From Abditibacteriaceae bacterium (GTDB lineage Bacteria > Armatimonadota > Abditibacteriia > Abditibacteriales > Abditibacteriaceae), in the NCBI GenBank assembly GCA_031372065.1, contig JANMKN010000404.1:1-15704 (forward strand): a DNA stretch of 15,704 nt, in the 5' to 3' direction. Under the pieces are notes generated by a model. That model was not told the DNA's origin, searched no databases, and was given only the letters and a program-made list of their open reading frames with translations. This document shows, piece after piece, positions 1,177 through 15,704 of the stretch. Numbering within the stretch: position 1 is the stretch's first letter; the number at the start of each line of letters is the position of its first letter. The translations under genes and the position numbers were made by a program.

Positions 1177-1324
1177 AAAACCCTTATAGGATAAGGCGAA
1201 ACTCGCATTTTTCGCCTCAAGTTTTATCACTTTTACGGTCCCGACCGGATTCGAACCGGCGGTCTCCTGCGTGACAGGAGTTGTGACAACTTCGCTTCGT
1301 CGCCCCTTATGGCATAAGGGTTTT
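1177..1324. repeat. Pair of inverted palindromic motifs AAAACCCTTAT-N3-ATAAGG flanking the att site
   Basis: 1177-1196 is AAAACCCTTAT-AGG-ATAAGG. 1304-1324 is CCCTTAT-GGC-ATAAGGGTTTT, the same motif in reverse orientation. Confidence 0.75.
1236..1278 (-). tRNA. 3' half of tRNA-Asp(GTC): displaced fragment forming the att junction, not a functional tRNA
   Basis: Minus strand reads C-CTGTCAC-GCAGG-AGACC-GCCGG-TTCGAAT-CCGGT-CGGGACC-G: anticodon loop with GTC, T-arm, 3' acceptor strand and discriminator G. The 5' acceptor strand, D-arm and most of the 5' anticodon stem are absent. Confidence 0.92.
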
Positions 1325-1411: not shown

Positions 1412-2401
1412 CTATAAACCCAGCAGATCGTCAATCCGTCGCCGCAATTCCATTAGTGTTGCGCGCGGCGCCGTGCCGCCCTCTTTCACCCATTGCTGCA
1501 CCGTTTCGAGATTGGAAAGCGCGCCTTGTGCGGCGGCGGCGGCGTTCTGAGTGGCTTCTTTTTTGGAGACGGTTGTTACCTGCTGTCCACGCGATACAGG
1601 AGCGCTTCCTTGTTCAGCGGCACGGCTTTGGCGCGATTGCGTTTCAGAGTCCGGTGCCTTTTGACTTTCTAACTGGAGATCGTGCTGGGCAGCGCGTTCG
1701 GTAATGATGCTTTGCAGCTCGCGCACAGGCGCGCCATGCTGGGCATATTCCATCAGCTCGCTGCGCAGTGATTTGTCGGCTACCGGACGCAGTGTCAAGG
1801 CGTGCGTCATCAGTTCAGGGTTCTCGGCGGCAAAGGTTTGCACATCCGGCGGGCACTTGAGCAGATTGACGCGGTTTTCAATGTAGGATTTATCCACATT
1901 GTATTTTTTAGCCATCGTGCGCAGGCTGAGATTCTCGTCGCGCATTTCGGCTTCAAAGGCGTGGGCCTGTTCAATGGGCAAATGATGCTTGTTGTGGATG
2001 CTGGTGCGCAGCGCCGCCGAGCGCGCGTCTTTGGCGCTCAGGTCATCAAGGATAATCGGCAGCCAGTCGTAATCATCTTTTGTCGCGCGGAACTTGCGCC
2101 CCCCATCCCAGACGAGCAGGGTGGCGTTCTTGCGCACTTTGCCGTCTTTGCCGGTGCTACCCGACGCCCAGCGGCATTTGAGCGGCTCCATGATGCCACT
2201 TTCCAAAAGGCCGTGTTTCTTGGCGCGCCAATCGTCAATATCGGCGCGCAGCGATTTGAGGTCTTCCTCGATGATGACGGTGCGCGGCTGGCCGGGGTCG
2301 AGTTTGAGGCGCGAGGGCGGCGCCAGCAGCACGCCAAAGTCGGGCGAGAAGCGCAGGCCGTTGTCGAGAAGTTCGGTGCGGTCAAGATTGAGGCGGATCA
2401 T
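1412..2401 (-). CDS. ParB/Spo0J-like protein with divergent CTP-binding motifs
   Basis: PGQPR (box I), GIMEPL, VWDGGRKFRA (box II; canonical GERRxRA), LPIEQAHAF and HTH SLRTMAKKYNVDKSYIENRVNLL. ATGA overlap with the upstream gene. Confidence 0.85.
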   Translation of the reverse strand: MIRLNLDRTELLDNGLRFSPDFGVLLAPPSRLKLDPGQPRTVIIEEDLKSLRADIDDWRAKKHGLLESGIMEPLKCRWASGSTGKDGKVRKNATLLVWDGGRKFRATKDDYDWLPIILDDLSAKDARSAALRTSIHNKHHLPIEQAHAFEAEMRDENLSLRTMAKKYNVDKSYIENRVNLLKCPPDVQTFAAENPELMTHALTLRPVADKSLRSELMEYAQHGAPVRELQSIITERAAQHDLQLESQKAPDSETQSRQSRAAEQGSAPVSRGQQVTTVSKKEATQNAAAAAQGALSNLETVQQWVKEGGTAPRATLMELRRRIDDLLGL

Positions 2402-3645: not shown

Positions 3646-4491
3646 ATGCCCACCACACCGTTTTGGAGTTCTGATCGAGCAACGCTGTATCATGGAGACG
3701 CCAAAACCGTTCTGGCATCACTTCCCACAGAAAGTGTGGATTGTATCGTCACGTCTCCGCCTTACTACGGGCAGCGCGATTACAAGGTTAAGGGCCAGAT
3801 TGGACTTGAAAAAACTCCTTTTGAATTCATAGAGTCTCTGGTTGATGTTTTTGGCGAAGCGCGCCGGGTGCTAAAACCTACCGGTGCCCTGTGGGTGAAC
3901 ATCGGTGACACCTACTGGAGTGGAAAGGGCAAACCGACCCAGCCAGATAATAAGCAGAGGAATCGCCGGTTTGAGCGCCCCCAAGACAAAACCAGTTCCC
4001 ACCCCATTTGTAAGCCAAAACAACTCCTTTTGGTGCCACACCGATTTGCCATCGCTATGCAAGACGATGGATGGGTTGTGCGCAATGATGTCATTTGGTG
4101 CAAACAAAATCCAACTCCTGACCCTGCAACAGATCGTTTAGCCTCCGCCCATGAATTCATGTTTTTCTTCACCAAGCAGGCAAAAGGCTATTACTTTAAC
4201 CGGCGAGCCGTTAGGGTTCTCTGCGCCGACGGAAAATCCACGAAGAACCCGCCCACTGTTTGGAATCTAAAAAGCGCGCCCACTTTCAAAAAACACATCG
4301 CTCCTTTTCAGGAAGAGCTTTTGCGCATCCCCATCAAGGCTACACTGCCCATCAACGGTGTGCTGCTGGATCCATTTTGCGGTAGCGCAACAGCCCTCAA
4401 GATGGCCTTAGCCAGAAGCAAGAGAAGTCGCGCCGTCGGCATCGACATTAGTGAAGACTTCTTGAATGAGGCAAAGGGCTTGCTGATCTAA
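3646..4491 (+). CDS. N4/N6 amino-DNA methyltransferase, beta class (SPPY suggests m4C)
   Basis: Motif IV TSPPY precedes motif I VLLDPFCGSAT. Also RVLKPTG, IWCKQNP, HEFMFFF. RBS GAGGA upstream. Confidence 0.95.
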   Translation: MPTTPFWSSDRATLYHGDAKTVLASLPTESVDCIVTSPPYYGQRDYKVKGQIGLEKTPFEFIESLVDVFGEARRVLKPTGALWVNIGDTYWSGKGKPTQPDNKQRNRRFERPQDKTSSHPICKPKQLLLVPHRFAIAMQDDGWVVRNDVIWCKQNPTPDPATDRLASAHEFMFFFTKQAKGYYFNRRAVRVLCADGKSTKNPPTVWNLKSAPTFKKHIAPFQEELLRIPIKATLPINGVLLDPFCGSATALKMALARSKRSRAVGIDISEDFLNEAKGLLI

Positions 4492-6411
4492 TTAATTCTC
4501 CTCGTTCTCCAGCGATAGACTACCCTGAGTTGCGATGTCATCGGGTGGAGTCTCATCGTCATCTTCATCGAAGTTCAAATCGTCTGTGCCCCAAAAATTT
4601 GGAAAGCTGAGTTGTCCATTCATACCCTTGTTTCCAAATTCGGGGAGCAGAGCAAGAGCGCCATCAATCGTGATCTTTTGAATTGCAACTCGGTTGTTAT
4701 TGCAGAAGGGATGAACAATCCGACCATTGTAAATAGCGGTTGGACCACCCTTGCCCACCTCGTGCTTGTGATCATACTGAACATTTTGAGTCGCAATCAA
4801 ACGCCCATTGCATATTTCGCAAGTAGGTAAAGTATCAAGAATGGTTTTCACCATAATCTCGTCTTTCATGCCTGGCGGGAAATTTCTGGCTGATGAAACT
4901 TTTTCATCCTCTATCCGGCCACTCTGACTCTTAGAACTTGTTTTTGTTAAAGTCTCAAGAATAATTGTGTGAGCAGCTTCAAATTCAGGTGTATTGATCT
5001 TGCCTGAAAATTCAATTACCTTTTGCAGCAAAGCATCAAAATAATTGGCGGTCTGTCGAGTTACCTCAGAGCCAGATCCAATTTTTCGCGTTATTCTTTT
5101 AATAATACGTTGCTTATGCTGAATCAATACATCTTCAAATGAGCCGCGATAAGCAGAAAAACTAATTTTTCGGGTATGAACATCTGTGTCGGAACCGAAG
5201 TTGATCCAATACAACATACCGTAAAGAAGATTGCGGACATAATCTCCTTGAGTATTGTAGTAATACAGGAGGGGAGCCGTGCTTAAGGAGCGCGGAGACG
5301 GACCCGCCAAACTATTCAAGGCATCAATGGTTTCGCTGGTTAGTGACTGGGCATTAATGATTATTTGCGTAGACGAATCCGATTTGTCGGCCTTCATAAG
5401 CGCCTCAGTCTCGACTTTCTGCCCTTTCTGCCCTTTTACAATGGTCAACACCTCTGCTGTGTATAATGGGCGCAAGTCGGGTCGAGCAGCAGATATACCC
5501 AAAAGAGGTCTTAAGGCGTCCTGTTTTACGTTCGCGGTCAATGGCTCAGGCGCAAAAAGCAAATTGGAGATGACGCGCGATTTCTTTAAAACTTCATCGG
5601 TAGTTGAATGCATTGGGGCAGGGACATCTACCTTTGGCCAACAGCGGTCAGCATGTGTTGGGTCTGCGATAGACATTACAAGTCGCGCAAAACTTGACTG
5701 TCTATTTTCAACAAGGATGGTTTCCCAGTCACTAAGAGGTGCACCAGTGCGATTAATCTTTACGAAAGACTTTTCGGCAGTCTCGTAATTTCCCACCACC
5801 CACTGAATAAAAAAACCAATGTCGGAGCCGCGCCACCTTCGAACTTTATTTGCTAACTTCTGTTCGCGCAAGCTAAGTTCGCCACTTACTGCTTCGCGTC
5901 CATGTTCACGCTCAACTTGACGAAATTTTGAATCCGCCATCCAGTATTCACGCGCCTCTCCGATACTTTTTGCCGCCAACAACTTGCGCACTTGTGTTGC
6001 TGCCTCGCGAGCCGCCACCAACTCTGCAGGAGTCATGTTTCTCGTGCAGCCTTCACCCCAATCATCTTTTAGCCAAGCCAATAACACCGAAATCCGATGG
6101 CCACCATCCAAAACATATATGAAGTTATCAGGACTCATCCAAAGAATTACGCTGGGAACAACCTGCTCATTTACAATGGATTCAAGTAAGTCCGCGCAAA
6201 CCGTCGGCGACCACGCCTGAGTAGTTCTTTGAAAATCCGGTTTGCGCAATTGCCAAACGAGGTCAGGATCGTTGTTTAGAGCATACAGGCGCAACGAAGG
6301 GAAAGGAGTGGGTTGATTGTCCCCCGCTTCAGTAATGCTTTTGTAAAGCAAAGGCTCTCTGGGAATCAGATGGTCCAGATAAACCCTGACCGACTGGTTT
6401 GTAACACTCAT
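4492..6411 (-). CDS. DUF262 (GmrSD N-terminal, ParB/Srx fold) plus C-terminal HNH endonuclease
   Basis: KPDFQR...WS...LLESI...PSVILW...VLDGGHR and F-VKINRTG-APL motifs. C-terminal CEIC...YDHKHEVGKGG...NGRIVHPFCN HNH signature and an acidic tail. Confidence 0.88.
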   Translation of the reverse strand: MSVTNQSVRVYLDHLIPREPLLYKSITEAGDNQPTPFPSLRLYALNNDPDLVWQLRKPDFQRTTQAWSPTVCADLLESIVNEQVVPSVILWMSPDNFIYVLDGGHRISVLLAWLKDDWGEGCTRNMTPAELVAAREAATQVRKLLAAKSIGEAREYWMADSKFRQVEREHGREAVSGELSLREQKLANKVRRWRGSDIGFFIQWVVGNYETAEKSFVKINRTGAPLSDWETILVENRQSSFARLVMSIADPTHADRCWPKVDVPAPMHSTTDEVLKKSRVISNLLFAPEPLTANVKQDALRPLLGISAARPDLRPLYTAEVLTIVKGQKGQKVETEALMKADKSDSSTQIIINAQSLTSETIDALNSLAGPSPRSLSTAPLLYYYNTQGDYVRNLLYGMLYWINFGSDTDVHTRKISFSAYRGSFEDVLIQHKQRIIKRITRKIGSGSEVTRQTANYFDALLQKVIEFSGKINTPEFEAAHTIILETLTKTSSKSQSGRIEDEKVSSARNFPPGMKDEIMVKTILDTLPTCEICNGRLIATQNVQYDHKHEVGKGGPTAIYNGRIVHPFCNNNRVAIQKITIDGALALLPEFGNKGMNGQLSFPNFWGTDDLNFDEDDDETPPDDIATQGSLSLENEEN

Positions 6412-6431
6412 AGCTTAAAATACCGCCTCAC

Positions 6432-6470
6432 TTAATCAAACACTTTCTCCAGCGCGCCGCGACACAATGC
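6432..6470 (-). repeat. Repressor 3'-end copy 4 (ALCRGALEKVFD*)
   Basis: GCA TTG TGT CGC GGC GCG CTG GAG AAA GTG TTT GAT TAA. 27/33 nt match to the repressor's last 11 codons; 20 nt upstream of the DUF262-HNH ATG. Confidence 0.9.
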
Positions 6471-6472
6471 TC

Positions 6473-6871
6473 TCACGCGAACGCTTCGCCCAGATTTGGC
6501 TCCAACAACTGCCGAATGCTTGCCTTGAATTCCGTCATATCCATCGGCTTGCCAAAAAACGCATCGGGTTTGCAGCGGGCCATCTCATCACGGCGTGTCT
6601 CCTGAAACCCTGAGAACACAACGATCTTGGTATCGCTGCGCACCTCTCTGGCGATGCAACACACATCGGCCCCGGTGCCATCGGGCAAGTCCCAATCGAT
6701 CAAAACCAAATCCACACACCCGTCTTGCAAAGCAGCGCGGGCCTCGGCTACCGATCCGGCGCCGCGCACAACATAGCCCATCAATCGCAGCACCGTAGCC
6801 GTGAGAATCACGAGTTCGTCGTGGTCATCAACGACAAGGACATGGGTAATGTTGTTGGATGATTCAAGCAT
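6473..6871 (-). CDS. Stand-alone response-regulator receiver (CheY-like) domain
   Basis: VLVVDD, DLVLIDWDLPD (phospho-Asp), FSG and GKP motifs intact; no output domain. Confidence 0.93.
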   Translation of the reverse strand: MLESSNNITHVLVVDDHDELVILTATVLRLMGYVVRGAGSVAEARAALQDGCVDLVLIDWDLPDGTGADVCCIAREVRSDTKIVVFSGFQETRRDEMARCKPDAFFGKPMDMTEFKASIRQLLEPNLGEAFA

Positions 6872-6876
6872 GAGCC

Positions 6877-6912
6877 TCAGCCAAAGACTTTTTCCCGAAT
6901 GCTACGGCACAC
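6877..6912 (-). repeat. Repressor 3'-end copy 3 (VCRSIREKVFG*)
   Basis: GTG TGC CGT AGC ATT CGG GAA AAA GTC TTT GGC TGA. 25/33 nt match; 5 nt upstream of the receiver gene ATG. Confidence 0.82.
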
Positions 6913-6941
6913 CTGAAGCTGCTTCAGGAAGCAGCTTCAGG
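6912..6941. repeat. Perfect 14-bp inverted repeat with nested palindrome
   Basis: CCTGAAGCTGCTTC-AG-GAAGCAGCTTCAGG. Contains the stop of 6937..7164 and abuts copy 3; no U-tract. Confidence 0.85.
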
Positions 6942-7164
6942 AACCTTTATTCAAATCCAAGGCTCCCAAATGTTCGATGATGGCCGCAAACTGAGTTTCG
7001 GCCTCTTCTTTTGTTAACCCACTTGCCAGTTCGGTGTGATCTGCATAAAGGCCATAGCCCACCCAAGGGCCATTCTGGTTGTCGGGATCTGTTTTCCCTT
7101 CAATGGAAATCACTTTAGCGTGTATCAAATTGTAAACCTTGCCATCCGCTGCTTTTACCCACAT
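6937..7164 (-). CDS. Hypothetical protein (75 aa)
   Basis: Strong RBS AAAGGAG upstream of the ATG; protein-like beta/alpha pattern. Confidence 0.8.
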   Translation of the reverse strand: MWVKAADGKVYNLIHAKVISIEGKTDPDNQNGPWVGYGLYADHTELASGLTKEEAETQFAAIIEHLGALDLNKGS

Positions 7165-7188
7165 TGCTGTCTCCTTTGTTGGTTTTCG

Positions 7189-7371
7189 TTACGGGAGAAT
7201 CTCGTTCGGAAAATAATAGCCTTTGATGCGTCCGATCACAAACGCCGCAATCGCAATCCACAAAAAATTACGCCGCAACCAAACAGCCCACAAGCCAGCG
7301 CGTTCCTCCAGCGAGACAACGCGTTTTCGCTGTTTGAGATTTGTGAGTGGGTCAGGAATGGGCGGTAGCAT
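7189..7371 (-). CDS. Small putative membrane protein (60 aa)
   Basis: Hydrophobic segment FLWIAIAAFVIG; ATG 2 nt after the stop codon of copy 2. Confidence 0.55.
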   Translation of the reverse strand: MLPPIPDPLTNLKQRKRVVSLEERAGLWAVWLRRNFLWIAIAAFVIGRIKGYYFPNEILP

Positions 7372-7373
7372 CT

Positions 7374-7406
7374 TTAATCAAAGACTTTTTCCAGCACACC
7401 GGAGCA
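7374..7406 (-). repeat. Repressor 3'-end copy 2 (CSGVLEKVFD*)
   Basis: TGC TCC GGT GTG CTG GAA AAA GTC TTT GAT TAA; 28/33 nt match. Confidence 0.9.
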
Positions 7407-7449
7407 AAACACTTTGCATCATCGTCAAGCATTTGTTACGCTTTTTTTT

Positions 7450-7737
7450 ATGAGTAACGATGTTGAAACCGTAGCCCCACAAGCTCTCCCAAACGCTTCT
7501 CCAAGCGCTCCTAAAACCGTGGCTGGAACCGTCGCTGAAATGGCACCTGCCGATTTTGAAGCCTTGTTAACGCGCGCACTATGCAATGCCATGAGTTATG
7601 CCGCGTTTCGCTTTGAAGAGGAGCGTCAAACGGAATATGGATTTACATTGCGCGAGCGCACTAACACAAGGCATCAGGAAATTCATGAAAGCTGGCACAC
7701 CTTATTAGACGGCGACAAGTCTGAAGTCACCGTTTGA
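7450..7737 (+). CDS. Hypothetical protein (95 aa), convergent with the adjacent gene
   Basis: Open frame from ATG 7450 with plausible composition. No clear RBS; 11-nt 3' overlap with 7727..7945. Confidence 0.45.
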   Translation: MSNDVETVAPQALPNASPSAPKTVAGTVAEMAPADFEALLTRALCNAMSYAAFRFEEERQTEYGFTLRERTNTRHQEIHESWHTLLDGDKSEVTV

Positions 7738-7945
7738 ATTGGTGTCCTGACACGCTGCCCTGCGGCGTCTCCCGATCCCTCTCGCGCACAACTTTAGTTT
7801 CGGCTTCAATCGTTGTTGCCAAAGCCTGTGCGATTTGATTAAGCCCTTCCGCGCTGACTTTGGGTGCCATTGCCTGACACGCTCCTCGCACCGCTGCCAG
7901 TGCTTCTAATTGCGATTCATGTAACTGCTTTGAATTTTCAGCCAT
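7727..7945 (-). CDS. Hypothetical helical protein (72 aa)
   Basis: RBS AGAGGAG lies between the stop of copy 1 and ATG 7945; MAENSKQLHESQLEALAAV... Confidence 0.7.
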   Translation of the reverse strand: MAENSKQLHESQLEALAAVRGACQAMAPKVSAEGLNQIAQALATTIEAETKVVRERDRETPQGSVSGHQFKR

Positions 7946-7959
7946 ACACAAACTCCTCT

Positions 7960-8050
7960 TCAATCAAACACCTTCTCTAAAACGCCGCGACACACCGCCA
8001 CGGCACACAGCCACGACGCGCGCCGATTCGACATCCTTGCCGAAATGGTA
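7960..8050 (-). repeat. Repressor 3'-end copy 1 (YHFGKDVESARVVAVCRG / VAVCRGVLEKVFD*) with internal 13-nt duplication
   Basis: 7960-8001 encodes VAVCRGVLEKVFD*, with 8 differences in the last 33 nt, all synonymous. 7997-8050 in another frame aligns with repressor FVLGPTMKQARIVAVCRG. Confidence 0.93.
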
Positions 8051-8320
8051 AATTAAAATACGCAGAAATGAGAACGCCTGCCCCCATCGCTTAACGCCCG
8101 CACTTACGCAGTGGCTTGGGCTTTGAGCGGACGTGTGTTTTCACAACAACCGTTTTCGGCCCCGGCTTCTTCGTAGTGCGCACGGGACGGCAAGTGGTTT
8201 TTGGCATTAAATCACCTCTTTCCGGCAGCGGTTGCCACCGGGCGCGTAGCAGTAACAACTACTGGCCGCAAGAGAGTTTTAATGGAAAGACAGGCGTTCT
8301 CATTTCTGCATATTTCAGCT
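8051..8320. repeat. 270-bp unit bounded by long inverted repeats
   Basis: 8056-8080 AAATACGCAGAAATGAGAACGCCTG versus the reverse complement of 8291-8315, AAATATGCAGAAATGAGAACGCCTG (24/25). Extends to 26/30 over 8051-8080 and 8291-8320. Confidence 0.92.
8091..8207 (-). CDS. Small basic peptide (38 aa) MPKTTCRPVRTTKKPGPKTVVVKTHVRSKPKPLRKCGR
   Basis: Below the ORF-track cutoff. Strong RBS AAAGAGGTGAT just upstream of ATG 8207, TAA at 8091-8093; fits inside the inverted repeats. Confidence 0.7.
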   Translation of the reverse strand: MPKTTCRPVRTTKKPGPKTVVVKTHVRSKPKPLRKCGR

Positions 8321-9315
8321 CAATCAAACACTTTTTCCAGCACACCACGGCAGACCGCCACGATTCTGGCTTGCTTCATGGTTGGCCCCAGCACGAACCC
8401 CGGATAGTCTGGGTTGTTGGCGCGCAATCGCTTTTTCTCATAAGCCTTGAGGGTTTGCACTACGCGCCCGTCTTTAAATTCAATTTCGGCCAGCACAATA
8501 TCGCCGGTGCGCGGCTGCCGTGGAAACTCATTCAAGGGCGTGAGTAAAATATCTGCGCCGTTTTGAATGGACATACGGTCACCATCCTGACTCATGCTCC
8601 ATCCAATAACAGTGGCTACGCCCGAATGAGGCGTGGCTTTTTCGGCCAAGCGGCCCCAAACTTCAACTTCGCTGGTATCGCCGATCATTTCGACAATATT
8701 ATCCAGCTCATCTAACGTGAATCCCTGCCCCGCACTAACCACCATATTGCGTGGCACCTTTTTCATTAATTGTAATGCCGGAATACGCGGCTTTCGCGGC
8801 TTAAATCCGTGTTTTTCTAAATCTTCAAAGAAAGTAGATTTCTTCTCTTCGAACGCTTCATCAATCATCCGACGGATGCGCGCCTCTTCTTCAACATCTA
8901 AAGGCTTCTTGGTTTTCTGTGGCTTTTCGGCGGGCGCTGTTAGTTCCAGATCGGCACCCTGAGATTGCGACTGCGATTGGCTTTGCGTGTCGGCTTGCAG
9001 GTAAAGGCTTATTGCTACTTGTGCCATTTCATTCGTGTCAAGATTCGTCTCAGATTTCCGAGCCTTCATCCGCGACCAAAGGTCGTCAGGAACGCTGGCC
9101 GACTTGCGCATATCGCGGTCTGTAATAAATAGGCGATGTTCAATCGTGTGAGGTGTTTTTAAATACCTCTCGAAGGCGCGACGAATAATAGACGCAACAG
9201 GAATATCAAGCTCTAACGCGTGATTGACAAGTGCTTGTCCCAATTCGTCCGAGAGATATACGTCTCGGATGCTGCGTTTCCCCTCTGACTGTCGCGGCAT
9301 TAAAAGTGTTGTCAT
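8320..9315 (-). CDS. CI/LexA-like repressor: two N-terminal ribbon-helix-helix-like units plus a C-terminal S24 autopeptidase
   Basis: VSAG (Ala-Gly scissile site), VIGWSM (Ser), TLKAY (Lys), LRANNPDYP. N-terminal repeats DVYLSDELGQAL...ASIIRRAFERYL and SASVPDDLWSRM...NEMAQVAISLYL. Divergent from the early operon. Confidence 0.85.
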   Translation of the reverse strand: MTTLLMPRQSEGKRSIRDVYLSDELGQALVNHALELDIPVASIIRRAFERYLKTPHTIEHRLFITDRDMRKSASVPDDLWSRMKARKSETNLDTNEMAQVAISLYLQADTQSQSQSQSQGADLELTAPAEKPQKTKKPLDVEEEARIRRMIDEAFEEKKSTFFEDLEKHGFKPRKPRIPALQLMKKVPRNMVVSAGQGFTLDELDNIVEMIGDTSEVEVWGRLAEKATPHSGVATVIGWSMSQDGDRMSIQNGADILLTPLNEFPRQPRTGDIVLAEIEFKDGRVVQTLKAYEKKRLRANNPDYPGFVLGPTMKQARIVAVCRGVLEKVFD

Positions 9316-9330
9316 GATGGTGCGTTCTTA

Positions 9331-9366
9331 TTTTACGCTTCGTGCAATTCGTGCAACGTCGTAAAA
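9331..9366. promoter_or_regulatory. Candidate operator
   Basis: Tandem TTCGTGCAA (9339-9347, 9348-9356) bracketed by inverted TTTTACG/CGTAAAA. Confidence 0.45.
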
Positions 9367-9389
9367 CACCAACAATATACGATAAATAA

Positions 9390-9401
9390 AAACATTTGTT
9401 C
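9390..9401. promoter_or_regulatory. Candidate LexA (Cheo-type) SOS box
   Basis: Minus strand GAAC-AAAT-GTTT fits GAAC-RNRY-GTTY. Confidence 0.45.
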
Positions 9402-9408
9402 TTATACC

Positions 9409-9436
9409 TTGCAAACTATCTAATATGTTGTAAAAT
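9409..9436 (+). promoter_or_regulatory. Candidate sigma70 promoter for the rightward early operon
   Basis: TTGCAA, 16-nt spacer, TAAAAT in the AT-rich divergent intergenic region. Confidence 0.55.
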
Positions 9437-9496
9437 AACGAGTAATTACGCAAATAAAAGCGCGCTACGCGGTCTTTACACAAGGACAAAACCAAA

Positions 9497-9961
9497 ATGG
9501 CAAACAAAACACACGACGTAACAATGAAATTGCACCCTGAAGACGAAAGCAGAATTGTCTTTCAGCGCGGCACAGAAAGTCGCGTTTTCGGGATTCTGCC
9601 CCACGGCGACAATGTTTTTGTGGTGACCATGCCAAACGGCAGTGAGCAGACCATTTGCCGCAAAATCCAGCTTTGGGGCTATCTCTGGCATTGCACCAGC
9701 ACAGGCGGCGTTTTGCGCGAATTTCACCCCTCCGAAAATCGCACCGACGAAGCCACCGGCGATGTGCGCGCCGTCTACGCTGTGCTTTCTTGGTTTCATT
9801 TGCGCGCCGAGTGTCGGTGCGGCGGCGGCAAGGTTTCCAGCATGGAAGAGTTAAGCAAGCGTGCCGAAAACTTTGAAAATCAAATGAAGCGCATTGAGCC
9901 TCAAAGCACTTTGGCTGCTGATTTTTGCGCCAAATACAACGGGCAGCGCATTACCAATTAA
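9497..9961 (+). CDS. Hypothetical protein (154 aa), first early gene
   Basis: RBS AAGGA upstream; no family recognised. Confidence 0.75.
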   Translation: MANKTHDVTMKLHPEDESRIVFQRGTESRVFGILPHGDNVFVVTMPNGSEQTICRKIQLWGYLWHCTSTGGVLREFHPSENRTDEATGDVRAVYAVLSWFHLRAECRCGGGKVSSMEELSKRAENFENQMKRIEPQSTLAADFCAKYNGQRITN

Positions 9962-14297: not shown

Positions 14298-15059
14298 ATG
14301 AACGACGATAATGCTGTAAATGACGCCGTGAGCGACGCGGATTCGGAGACGCCCCCGATGGAGCCAACCGAAACACAGCCAACCGAAACGGAGCCGGAAG
14401 CGGAGCCGCAGTCGAATACATGGACAGGCAAAACCCATCAAAACCTCAAGGTGGTTTTGACTGAAATGCAAGTGCTGGCCCACGGACGCGAGCAAGCCAA
14501 ACTGCTACAAAGCCTCGCCCGCACTGAAGAGGAAGAAAAGCAAGTCAAAGCACAATACAAAGCCAAGAAGGAAAAGCTGCTCGCCGAAATCAAATTCGAA
14601 TCGCAGATCGTCAACAACGGCTACATCTTCAAAGAAATCGAGTGTGAGGTGCGCTTTAACAGCCCGCTGAATGGCGAGAAGACAATTGTGCGCCTCGACA
14701 CCGGCGATGTGGTCGGCATTGAAATGATGGACTATCACGAGATGCGGCGCCCTGTCACTCAGCACGAATTGTTCCCTCAGAACGAAGTCGCTGCGGCCAC
14801 TGATGTAAGCGATGAATCCGAAGAAGTTGAAGGCGACGAAGAGGCTGATCAGGAAACCAATCAAAAAGACAGCACTGCCGAGATATTCCCTGTCAATGGT
14901 GCCACACCAAATGGTTATCATTTTGAGAAAGACCTGCCACCGGTGCCAGAGTTACCCCAGATGATGGACGAGGCCAACGACAATGCACACGGAAGTCTCT
15001 CTGTTGATTCCCCAGAGGCTACGTCCAAGAAGCGCAGCCGTAAAGCGGCCTCAGCATAA
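14298..15059 (+). CDS. Acidic phage protein with central coiled-coil/beta domain
   Basis: RBS AAGGAG before ATG 14298; P/T/E-rich N-terminus, core LKVVLT...IVRLDTG...QHELF, acidic C-terminus. Confidence 0.8.
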   Translation: MNDDNAVNDAVSDADSETPPMEPTETQPTETEPEAEPQSNTWTGKTHQNLKVVLTEMQVLAHGREQAKLLQSLARTEEEEKQVKAQYKAKKEKLLAEIKFESQIVNNGYIFKEIECEVRFNSPLNGEKTIVRLDTGDVVGIEMMDYHEMRRPVTQHELFPQNEVAAATDVSDESEEVEGDEEADQETNQKDSTAEIFPVNGATPNGYHFEKDLPPVPELPQMMDEANDNAHGSLSVDSPEATSKKRSRKAASA

Positions 15060-15060
15060 A

Positions 15061-15113
15061 CGAACAGGGGCGCCACGGTTTTCGGATGATCGAATCTGTG
15101 GCGCTCCTATTCG
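15061..15113 (+). terminator. Long hairpin after the stop codon (terminator or processing site)
   Basis: CGAACAGGGGCGCCACGG pairs with CTGTGGCGCTCCTATTCG (two G-U pairs, one mismatch); only a weak U-tract. Confidence 0.5.
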
Positions 15114-15147
15114 TTTCATCAAAAGAGCAACGAAAGAAGGGATTTTA

Positions 15148-15704
15148 GTGACAAATGAACTCGCTACCGTGCAAAACGGTATTCAACATGGCGCGCAAGC
15201 TGGTATTCAAACAGCGCAAAACGGCGCCGCGTTATCACCAGCCATGACGGTCAATCAGGCCGTGCTGCAATACAAACTCATCCAAAAAATTGTGAGCGAT
15301 GTTTTAGTGGAAGGGCGCGATTACGGTGTTATTCCCGGCACGCGCGGCGGGCCATCGCTGTGGAAGCCGGGCGCCGAAAAGTTGTGCGGCGTTTTTGGTT
15401 TGGCGGTGACTATCGCCCATGTTGCCACCAAGCAGCAGGAAAACTTTCTGGAATATCAAATCACCGTGGAACTGGTTTCGCGGCACACCGGCGCCGTTGT
15501 CGGGCAAGGCATCGGCTCGTGCAATTCGCAGGAGAAGAAATACAAAAACGTGTCCGTGGCCGACTGCGCGAACACGCTGCTAAAAATGGCAAAGAAGCGC
15601 GCGCAGATTGATGCGGTTTTGAGCGCAACGGGCGCCAGCGGCTTCTTTGAGGATGAAGACGAAGTAACACCCGCGCAGCGCCCACAAAACACATCGCAAA
15701 CCAC
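15148..15704 (+). CDS. Putative single-strand annealing protein (Rad52/Erf/Red-beta superfamily-like); runs off the window
   Basis: Not in the ORF track. GTG 15148 after AAGGGA, open to the window end: DYGVIPGT..PSLWKPGAEKL...GQGIGSCNSQEKKY...NTLLKMAKKRAQIDAVL. Confidence 0.65.
   Translation, partial: MTNELATVQNGIQHGAQAGIQTAQNGAALSPAMTVNQAVLQYKLIQKIVSDVLVEGRDYGVIPGTRGGPSLWKPGAEKLCGVFGLAVTIAHVATKQQENFLEYQITVELVSRHTGAVVGQGIGSCNSQEKKYKNVSVADCANTLLKMAKKRAQIDAVLSATGASGFFEDEDEVTPAQRPQNTSQT

Follow-up and report, generated by a model that had tools for sequence, protein, structure and literature searches.

We analyzed a 15,704-nt stretch of DNA (the window) from an Abditibacteriaceae bacterium, which makes up contig C203 of a 6.1-Mb genome in 410 contigs (G000), and focused on a prophage repressor-like gene that is followed by four orphan copies of its own 3' end, each placed just ahead of another gene. 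This array is a real feature, and it represents a known kind of scar rather than a dedicated new system. The copies are in all likelihood old gene ends displaced by recombination with incoming alleles, a notion shared by the reading that we prefer and by a rival one involving circular intermediates. With less assurance, we favor the view that they are scars of successive displacement via one-sided recombination acting on many genes of the genome. The architecture, its genome-wide recurrence, the allele-like divergence of the copies and the empty and donor-like sites in congeners are matters of observation. What is new here is that the same signature occurs at about 30 unrelated genes and that congeners hold such empty and donor-like sites.

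A repeat search of the window revealed one five-member family with members at 6432, 6877, 7374, 7960 and 8320 (spacings of 445, 497, 586 and 360 bp), the last being the end of the intact repressor gene. The remaining four, numbered from the repressor outward as orphan ends 1–4 (see the table below), are 27–43 nt each and co-oriented with the repressor. Their scores against the repressor end (24, 23, 21 and 19) are to be compared with a mean shuffled maximum of 10.5 and a top value of 15 in 100 shuffles. The ATG of the next gene follows the stop codons of orphan ends 1–4 after 14, 2, 5 and 20 nt, respectively. The five ends with their stops, spacings, translations and stop-to-ATG gaps had been described in a first-pass annotation made from the sequence alone, and all were confirmed by repeat search and translation. 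The same is true of its remark that orphan ends 3 and 4 begin just past the stop of the preceding gene (23 and 8 nt, respectively). Its cargo list was correct for four genes but lacked a 75-aa gene in the unit of the 60-aa gene. A 38-codon open reading frame (ORF) between inverted repeats in the first spacer and a frame-shifted partial duplicate (ARVVAVCRG, at a 13-nt offset ahead of orphan end 1) had been missed as well. A position weight matrix (PWM) scan of the 6.1-Mb genome found strong copies of the repressor end only on the window's contig and on contig C270, so the motif is not a dispersed intergenic repeat.

The copies differ from the repressor in the manner of alleles. Across the last 11 sense codons, orphan end 1 shows 1, 0 and 8 differences at codon positions 1, 2 and 3, with no amino-acid change over the last 12 codons, and orphan end 4 shows 1, 1 and 5. 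Orphan ends 2 and 3 include some nonsynonymous changes. The repressor end on an unrelated metagenome contig (L014) matches that of the window at 32 of 36 nt, compared with 27–29 of 36 for the orphan copies. Judging by this third-position bias and by the greater closeness of L014, at least orphan ends 1 and 4 evidently come from other functional alleles and not from decayed duplicates.

Contig C270, on which no repressor match was found, carries three more copies of the repressor end, the third found apart from the PWM scan. The genes that come after them are a 64-aa gene, a gene paralogous to the 60-aa gene and a zinc-ribbon gene, in an order unlike that of the window, and an interrupted receiver-domain paralog lies after the cluster. 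One end with its leader (AGGAGTTTGTGTATGGCTG) stands ahead of the 72-aa gene in the window and ahead of the zinc-ribbon gene on C270, and a 39%-identical homolog of the latter gene is the cargo behind the repressor in genome G003. Since different genes thus follow the same end and leader, and since the zinc-ribbon homolog serves as repressor cargo elsewhere, unit boundaries do vary. As a whole, the C270 region (L029:1080-4700) looks like a repressor-less cargo cluster with a fragmented nuclease, presumably PLD-like, and the three tail copies. Its receiver-domain gene is interrupted by an insert that includes a 300-aa gene, and a tandem 6-residue repeat lies near the gene end.

On contig C58, the homolog of the 72-aa cargo gene is flanked by a JAB-domain gene and, on the other side, by an orphan copy of the JAB gene's own end, and for this reason we scanned the whole genome for orphan gene ends. 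The first, unfiltered control was noisy (32 matches, as against 7–14 with internal windows, up to 24 with 5' windows and up to 41 with post-stop windows), and a codon-filtered control was used in its place. Among 3534 codon-filtered genes, 33 are followed within 3 kb by a short orphan copy of their own final 45 nt. Control windows ending 45, 90, 150, 240 and 330 nt before the stop gave 16, 8, 3, 0 and 0 genes with copies, and the same search directed upstream gave none of 3457 genes. Under a strict rule that demands an in-register stop, 30 of 3499 genes (~0.9%) have an orphan end, compared with 0–2 in internal and upstream controls. Scars shorter than ~19 nt are invisible, which makes the count a minimum and cuts off the short end of the length distribution.

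The scan yielded 38 orphan copies, of which three were dropped as repeat or paralog artefacts. The 35 analyzed copies have a median length of 45 nt (range 20–230) and an identity of 68–100%. Homology extends no more than 5 nt beyond the stop, an in-register stop is present in 34 of them, and the differences number 79, 48 and 164 at codon positions 1, 2 and 3. Most inserts are single co-oriented genes, with the orphan typically starting within ~30 nt of the insert's stop; the five inserts scanned contain Fic, SMI1/KNR4 and IS200-like genes and unknowns, with one weak HSDR_N match. The anchor genes include methionine synthase (metH), amidase, acetate kinase, pseudouridine synthase, GNAT and three DUF1501 genes; some of them we take to be gatA, rluD, rimI and hslU. 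The provisional labels 'smc' and 'pilB' for the anchors on contigs C368 and C257 were dropped, as the last 150 residues have no Pfam match. A DUF1552 gene has three orphan copies of its own end, at +464, +958 and +1485. In this array on C67 (L058:1599-3084) each copy separates a small gene, as in the window, and no phage context was seen. Elsewhere (C368:10000-15000, L064), the orphan end of a 1,241-codon gene lies between SMI1/KNR4-type genes.

Random samples of genes from other genomes were scanned as well; the p values are indicative only, because genes within a genome, and kin, are non-independent. None of 695 genes from three other genera of the family (G005, G011 and G012) has a scar (p = 0.006 for G000 against this sample). 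The pooled samples of G002, an assembly with frameshifts, gave 2 of 535 genes, at least one of which is probably a paralog end, and the second G002 sample alone gave 0 of 269. Compared with the other genera this corresponds to p = 0.19, so the sampling does not show genus-wide enrichment. The G003 sample (1 of 186 genes) includes a contig already known to hold a scar, and the E. coli control (0 of 31) is a sample without power.

To compare the scars with related genomes, we traced eight anchors through 39 homologous loci of five relatives. Three of these loci are empty sites, at metH in G001 and G002 and at the GNAT gene in G002, where the anchor is followed directly by what trails the orphan in G000. 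At metH, the bases past the stop in the relatives resemble those past the G000 orphan. The corresponding scars in G000 are duplications of 35 nt (metH) and 40 nt (GNAT gene). Two loci are donor-like: the GNAT and C257 genes of G003 are followed directly by homologs of the G000 inserts, without an orphan. Another two, the C257 ortholog of G002 and the C368 ortholog of G003, have scars of their own that lie behind different inserts; both of these inserts are presumably toxin-antitoxin-like, judging by their motifs. At the C257 and C368 genes themselves, it is the orphan that keeps the C-terminus of the congeners, and the intact gene differs. An old end downstream and a new end in the intact gene are thus supported at metH, GNAT, C257 and C368. 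The earlier proposal that old ends are displaced, and that the array grows at its repressor-proximal side, is supported in its polarity at these other loci (empty sites, orphan C-termini) and would apply to the window by extension. The independent scar of G003 at the C368 ortholog surrounds a PIN-like pair. A separate observation concerns one 464-aa gene shared by G002 (L106) and G000 (L069), at which the junctions of independent inserts lie ~10 nt apart, each immediately past the insert's stop codon.

Several points weigh against one-sided displacement. The other 32 of the 39 loci are uninformative, and the relatives sampled show neither an empty site nor a donor arrangement for the array of the window. 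At metH and the pseudouridine synthase gene (rluD-like), the intact end is as near to the relatives as the orphan, or nearer. The mosaic comparison at C257 found no actual donor among the sampled sequences; a few-base overlap was seen by eye at three junctions, the true donors being outside the sample. Among possible components of the pathway, comEC was found in all four genomes of the genus, which speaks for the scheme, but also in 10 of 14 control genomes, hence it does not discriminate; Ku was not found in any of the four. In the passages of PMC5361080 cited here, homology-facilitated illegitimate recombination is rare and replaces rather than duplicates resident DNA. Finally, the joint would have to land upstream of the anchor's end, which we presume.

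In the preferred scheme, incoming DNA would carry a homolog of the resident gene together with the donor's next gene. Homologous recombination would occur in or upstream of the resident gene, and the far end of the donor DNA, just beyond the stop of the new gene, would be joined illegitimately ~20–100 nt ahead of the resident stop. The product would consist of an intact gene with the donor end, the new gene, the stranded old end and the old downstream gene at its original spacing. At the repressor locus there would have been at least four such events, each swapping all or part of the repressor for another allele plus its first cargo gene, and each leaving the final dozen codons of the earlier allele stranded with their own cargo and translation start. 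Homology would end at the stop because homologous genes with different neighbors cease to match there. Joints past the stop would delete the start of the neighbor and leave no tail, and would be either counter-selected or invisible. Both the one-sided chemistry and the DNA source (transformation or phage) are presumed. The tight fit may be primary, or selection may maintain it by removing long repeats and untranslated gaps. Secondarily, the copies may act as short handles for deletion or reshuffling.

So far, the clean arrival of single accessory genes between conserved genes or behind phage repressors, without a mobile element, has mostly been a case-by-case inference. The stop-bounded orphan end is a countable, polarized signature that tells which gene served as anchor, in what order genes arrived and which neighbor was the original one. 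By means of it, scar rate, donors and recombination pathway become testable through genome comparison and transformation. In the prophage, cargo would have been gained four times or more at a site with possible expression in lysogens, and the array would be the record of this. A bolder version, which we consider unlikely, is that an undescribed pathway in this lineage captures genes one at a time, as stop-to-stop units and with neither integrase nor transposase, the foreign gene end (≤~30 nt from its stop) being joined a few dozen bases before the stop of a homologous upstream gene. If so, the arrays behind the repressor and the DUF1552 gene would stem from its repeated action, and it would account for lone accessory genes that sit neatly within operons and behind phage repressors.

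Several known systems leave comparable traces. The cited passages of Jackson et al. (2009, PMC2935791) describe C-terminal displacement arrays at rhs loci, where incoming DNA provides a fresh 3' end and moves the old one downstream, giving arrays of fragments of variable length. There, the payload is a variable functional tip and the repeat is an internal core fragment, whereas here only the conserved last 7–30 codons are stranded, a separate gene forms the payload and arbitrary genes serve as anchors. In Vibrio cholerae, type VI secretion system (T6SS) clusters undergo sequential displacement by homology-facilitated illegitimate recombination (Kirchberger et al. 2017, PMC5361080), and T6SS displacement arrays also appear in the relevant part of PMC11751169. 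Shared with our scars, in the scheme that we prefer for them, are the combination of one homologous anchor with one illegitimate joint and the old downstream gene, which is retained and pushed back. The T6SS authors, in the same passages, pointed to a likeness to integrons and to no evidence for an integrase; the process as described there is limited to effector-immunity modules, and neither a short stop-bounded remnant nor genome-wide occurrence comes up (PMC5361080). Our arrays have the stranded, co-oriented upstream-gene fragments of variable length that characterize rhs and T6SS loci, but their anchors are an S24-type repressor and metabolic or unknown genes, not polymorphic toxins or effectors with immunity genes.

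Insertion with long target duplication, described in the cited part of Furuta et al. (2010, PMC2853133) for restriction-modification genes without a mobile element and mostly in naturally competent species, resembles our case in its element-free inserts, repeats >30 bp, often over a start or stop, and intact target gene. The metH and GNAT sites (35 and 40 nt) have the insert <20 kb, the repeats >30 bp and the empty site that define it; no restriction-modification system in the sense of PMC2853133 was found among the five scanned inserts. The repeats tabulated there are mostly near-identical and not stop-bounded, whereas ours are stop-bounded, stacked, different in an allele-like manner and associated with diverse single genes. 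The promoter/stem-loop (PeSL) cassettes of T4-type phages, as presented by Arbiol et al. (2010, PMC2839356), likewise place short repeats between accessory genes, with shuffling and mini-circles possible; unlike PeSLs, the repeats here are coding-gene ends. Repeat-flanked small variable segments are, according to the portion cited of PMC2884548, common in bacteria. The array falls under a known kind of displacement scar (rhs, T6SS, long target duplication); the annotation had not recognized it as a described system. A literature search, with little coverage of subscription papers, turned up neither a paper on arrays of repressor ends nor a genome-wide count of stop-bounded scars.

The displacement of old ends could also proceed through a circular intermediate, an explanation that we regard as possible but doubtful. 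Here, a circle with a gene end and one cargo gene would enter by a single crossover (insertion-duplication), the short orphan would be either the homology arm itself or what erosion has left of a longer arm, and neighboring copies could re-form circles. Such a model has been put forward for rhs loci (PMC2935791), and mini-circles between short repeats were demonstrated for T4-type PeSLs (PMC2839356). The final architecture and polarity would be identical, and C270 does hold the same kind of copies in another gene order. Most anchors, however, have one orphan only, the donor-like loci of G003 lack a repeat for the excision of a circle, and contigs of three runs contain no unit-skipping joint (contigs drop rare forms). 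Furthermore, arms of only 20–100 nt at 68–100% identity are poor RecA substrates. Slippage, i.e. local tandem duplication of the repressor end with neutral decay and later gene insertion, might explain the 13-nt offset partial duplicate at orphan end 1 and the nonsynonymous changes in orphan ends 2 and 3. It is made most improbable by the synonymous bias in orphan ends 1 and 4, the former differing at eight third and one first positions with its amino acids unchanged, and by the end of the distant prophage L014 being nearer to the window's repressor end than any copy.

Integrons (IntI, attI, attC) hold polar arrays of promoterless genes, and integrases may also insert elements into the 3' ends of coding genes, as with e14 at icd, so that the target is restored and the old end displaced. 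The first-pass annotation proposed a repressor-specific, integron-like cassette system, with the repressor 3' end as the recombination site. Four copies within 1.9 kb and three on C270, each near a start codon, together with the common end and leader ahead of different genes on C203 and C270, are consistent with this idea. Yet it is very unlikely, given that about 30 unrelated chromosomal anchors show the same architecture, one of them with three copies and no phage context seen. In place of a fixed att core with a cognate integrase, there are duplications with variable left edges (20 to 230 nt), no common site being evident. The repeats are direct copies of coding sequence, unlike the imperfect palindromes of attC; 6300-8500 has no Rfam match at E≤0.1, with no dedicated attC model used. 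Of 11 matches to PF00589 in the genome, none is on C203 or C270, in agreement with the annotation's remark that intI is missing and in contrast to integrons and icd-type integration. An assembly artefact, a concern that the annotation had also raised, has an exceedingly small probability. The assembly is metagenome-derived, and the run contigs break where sequence is shared with C270. Contigs of one public run, possibly the source sample, match 7227-9600, 6842-7255 and 4400-6494 without differences; 6517-6842 is uncovered in the pieces listed, and no single record spans the array. Orphan ends 1 and 2 fall within one 3.1-kb contig and orphan ends 3 and 4 within others, each with its flanks. In addition, the copies match one another at only 23–29 of 36 nt, and the same architecture is present in the independently assembled G002 and G003.

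Related repressors give a further perspective on the locus. The window's repressor matches phrog_4 (E 5e-6), phrog_6506 (E 6e-4) and PF00717 (E 0.0014, under the cut-off), and its final 12 residues are unchanged in the three closest homologs, at an overall identity of 47–52%. The family set comprised 26 representatives at E≤0.001, one a false match. Its members have a near-constant S24-type C-terminal domain in common, and their N-termini vary widely (tandem Arc-like, zinc-ribbon or short). The expectation that relatives would carry variable numbers of tails was not borne out: in none of 12 related loci did the repressor's own last 42 nt have a copy above the null in the 217-6000 nt downstream, a sample in which only three loci have the same C-terminus type as the window's repressor (downstream spans of 6000, 1210 and 217 nt). 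A scan of 26 further genomes of the family with the tail pattern gave no match. In metagenome and genome collections, pattern scans returned nine loci, three of which encode the repressor (L014, L015 and L016); the other six, without a repressor match, were set aside as chance. The interval between the repressor and the ParB-like gene carries different cargo in L014, L016 and C115, and it is therefore a hotspot whether or not tails are visible. The gene after the intact repressor in G024 resembles the first 12 residues of the 75-aa gene, if weakly (7 of 12 identical). On C145 (L028:3407-4300), a small-gene/PIN pair lies behind a 62-aa ORF that is similar to the zinc-ribbon N-terminus found in related repressors, and the same pair comes after the intact repressor on C115 (L030:3548-4179).

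Features of the window. Residues given for orphan ends immediately precede the stop codon.
Feature	Position	Strand	Remarks
Probable att site	1235..1278	not assigned	44 nt identical to a tRNA-like sequence on C231
ParB-like gene, closes variable region	1412..2401	-	66-67% identical genes downstream of related repressors in L014, L016
DUF262/GmrSD_N + HNH gene, last in array	4492..6411	-	PF03235 E 8e-11, PF01844 E 0.004, phrog_29172 E 6e-58
Orphan repressor end 4 (ALCRGALEKVFD)	6432..6470	-	
Stand-alone receiver-domain gene	6473..6871	-	PF00072 E 7e-16; interrupted paralog on C270
Orphan repressor end 3 (VCRSIREKVFG)	6877..6913	-	adjoins 13-bp hairpin 6912-6941
75-aa cargo gene	6937..7164	-	shares unit behind orphan end 2 with 60-aa gene
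60-aa hydrophobic cargo gene	7189..7371	-	82%-identical paralog behind orphan end on C270
Orphan repressor end 2 (CSGVLEKVFD)	7374..7406	-	
72-aa cargo gene	7727..7945	-	60%-identical homolog on C58
Orphan repressor end 1 (VAVCRGVLEKVFD)	7960..8002	-	overlapping frame-shifted partial copy ahead, reaching ~8023
First spacer	8056..8315	not assigned	25-nt inverted repeats 8056-8080 / 8291-8315
Lys/Arg-rich 38-codon ORF inside first spacer	8091-8207	-	
Prophage repressor-like gene, 331 aa, array anchor	8320..9315	-	Arc-like N-terminus, S24-type C-terminal domain

From its gene content, the window reads as one end of a prophage, with the putative att, the ParB-like gene, the variable region, the repressor-like gene on the reverse strand and divergent early genes with HTH domains in this order. 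A tyrosine integrase is encoded on C231 ~0.8 kb from the stretch identical to the putative att, and the tRNA-like sequence at the latter is presumably tRNA-Asp. Scans of viral contigs with the repressor, the repressor alignment, two tail patterns and the ParB-like protein as queries found no relatives. The small cargo genes have no convincing match in PADLOC. The DUF262/GmrSD_N-HNH gene encodes a possible defence nuclease. Counts of promoters and terminators are at chance level.

The 13-bp hairpin at the left edge of orphan end 3 lies immediately past the stop of the 75-aa gene. The 260-bp unit of the first spacer is present in a single genome copy, with inverted-repeat arms that are complementary at 24 of 25 positions and have no other occurrence in the genome; it forms a ~30-bp stem with a fold z of -6.8. 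The inner hairpin is predicted to mask the ribosome-binding site of the 38-aa ORF. The unit could be an invertible segment, an element resembling miniature inverted-repeat transposable elements or a small gene under translational control that sits right behind the repressor. At the other end of the window, the product of 14983-15704 (phrog_10048) is a conserved phage protein, and homologs of it are encoded in L014, C370 and C168. Compared with the Atlas, it falls only into unnamed clusters, and SSAP_Sak (0.83) is a weak lead to single-strand annealing proteins. The last 141 nt of the contig (15564-15704) are 100% shared with C185 and C186, which diverge past this shared end into different replication-type modules, suggesting either two related prophages or an assembly fork.

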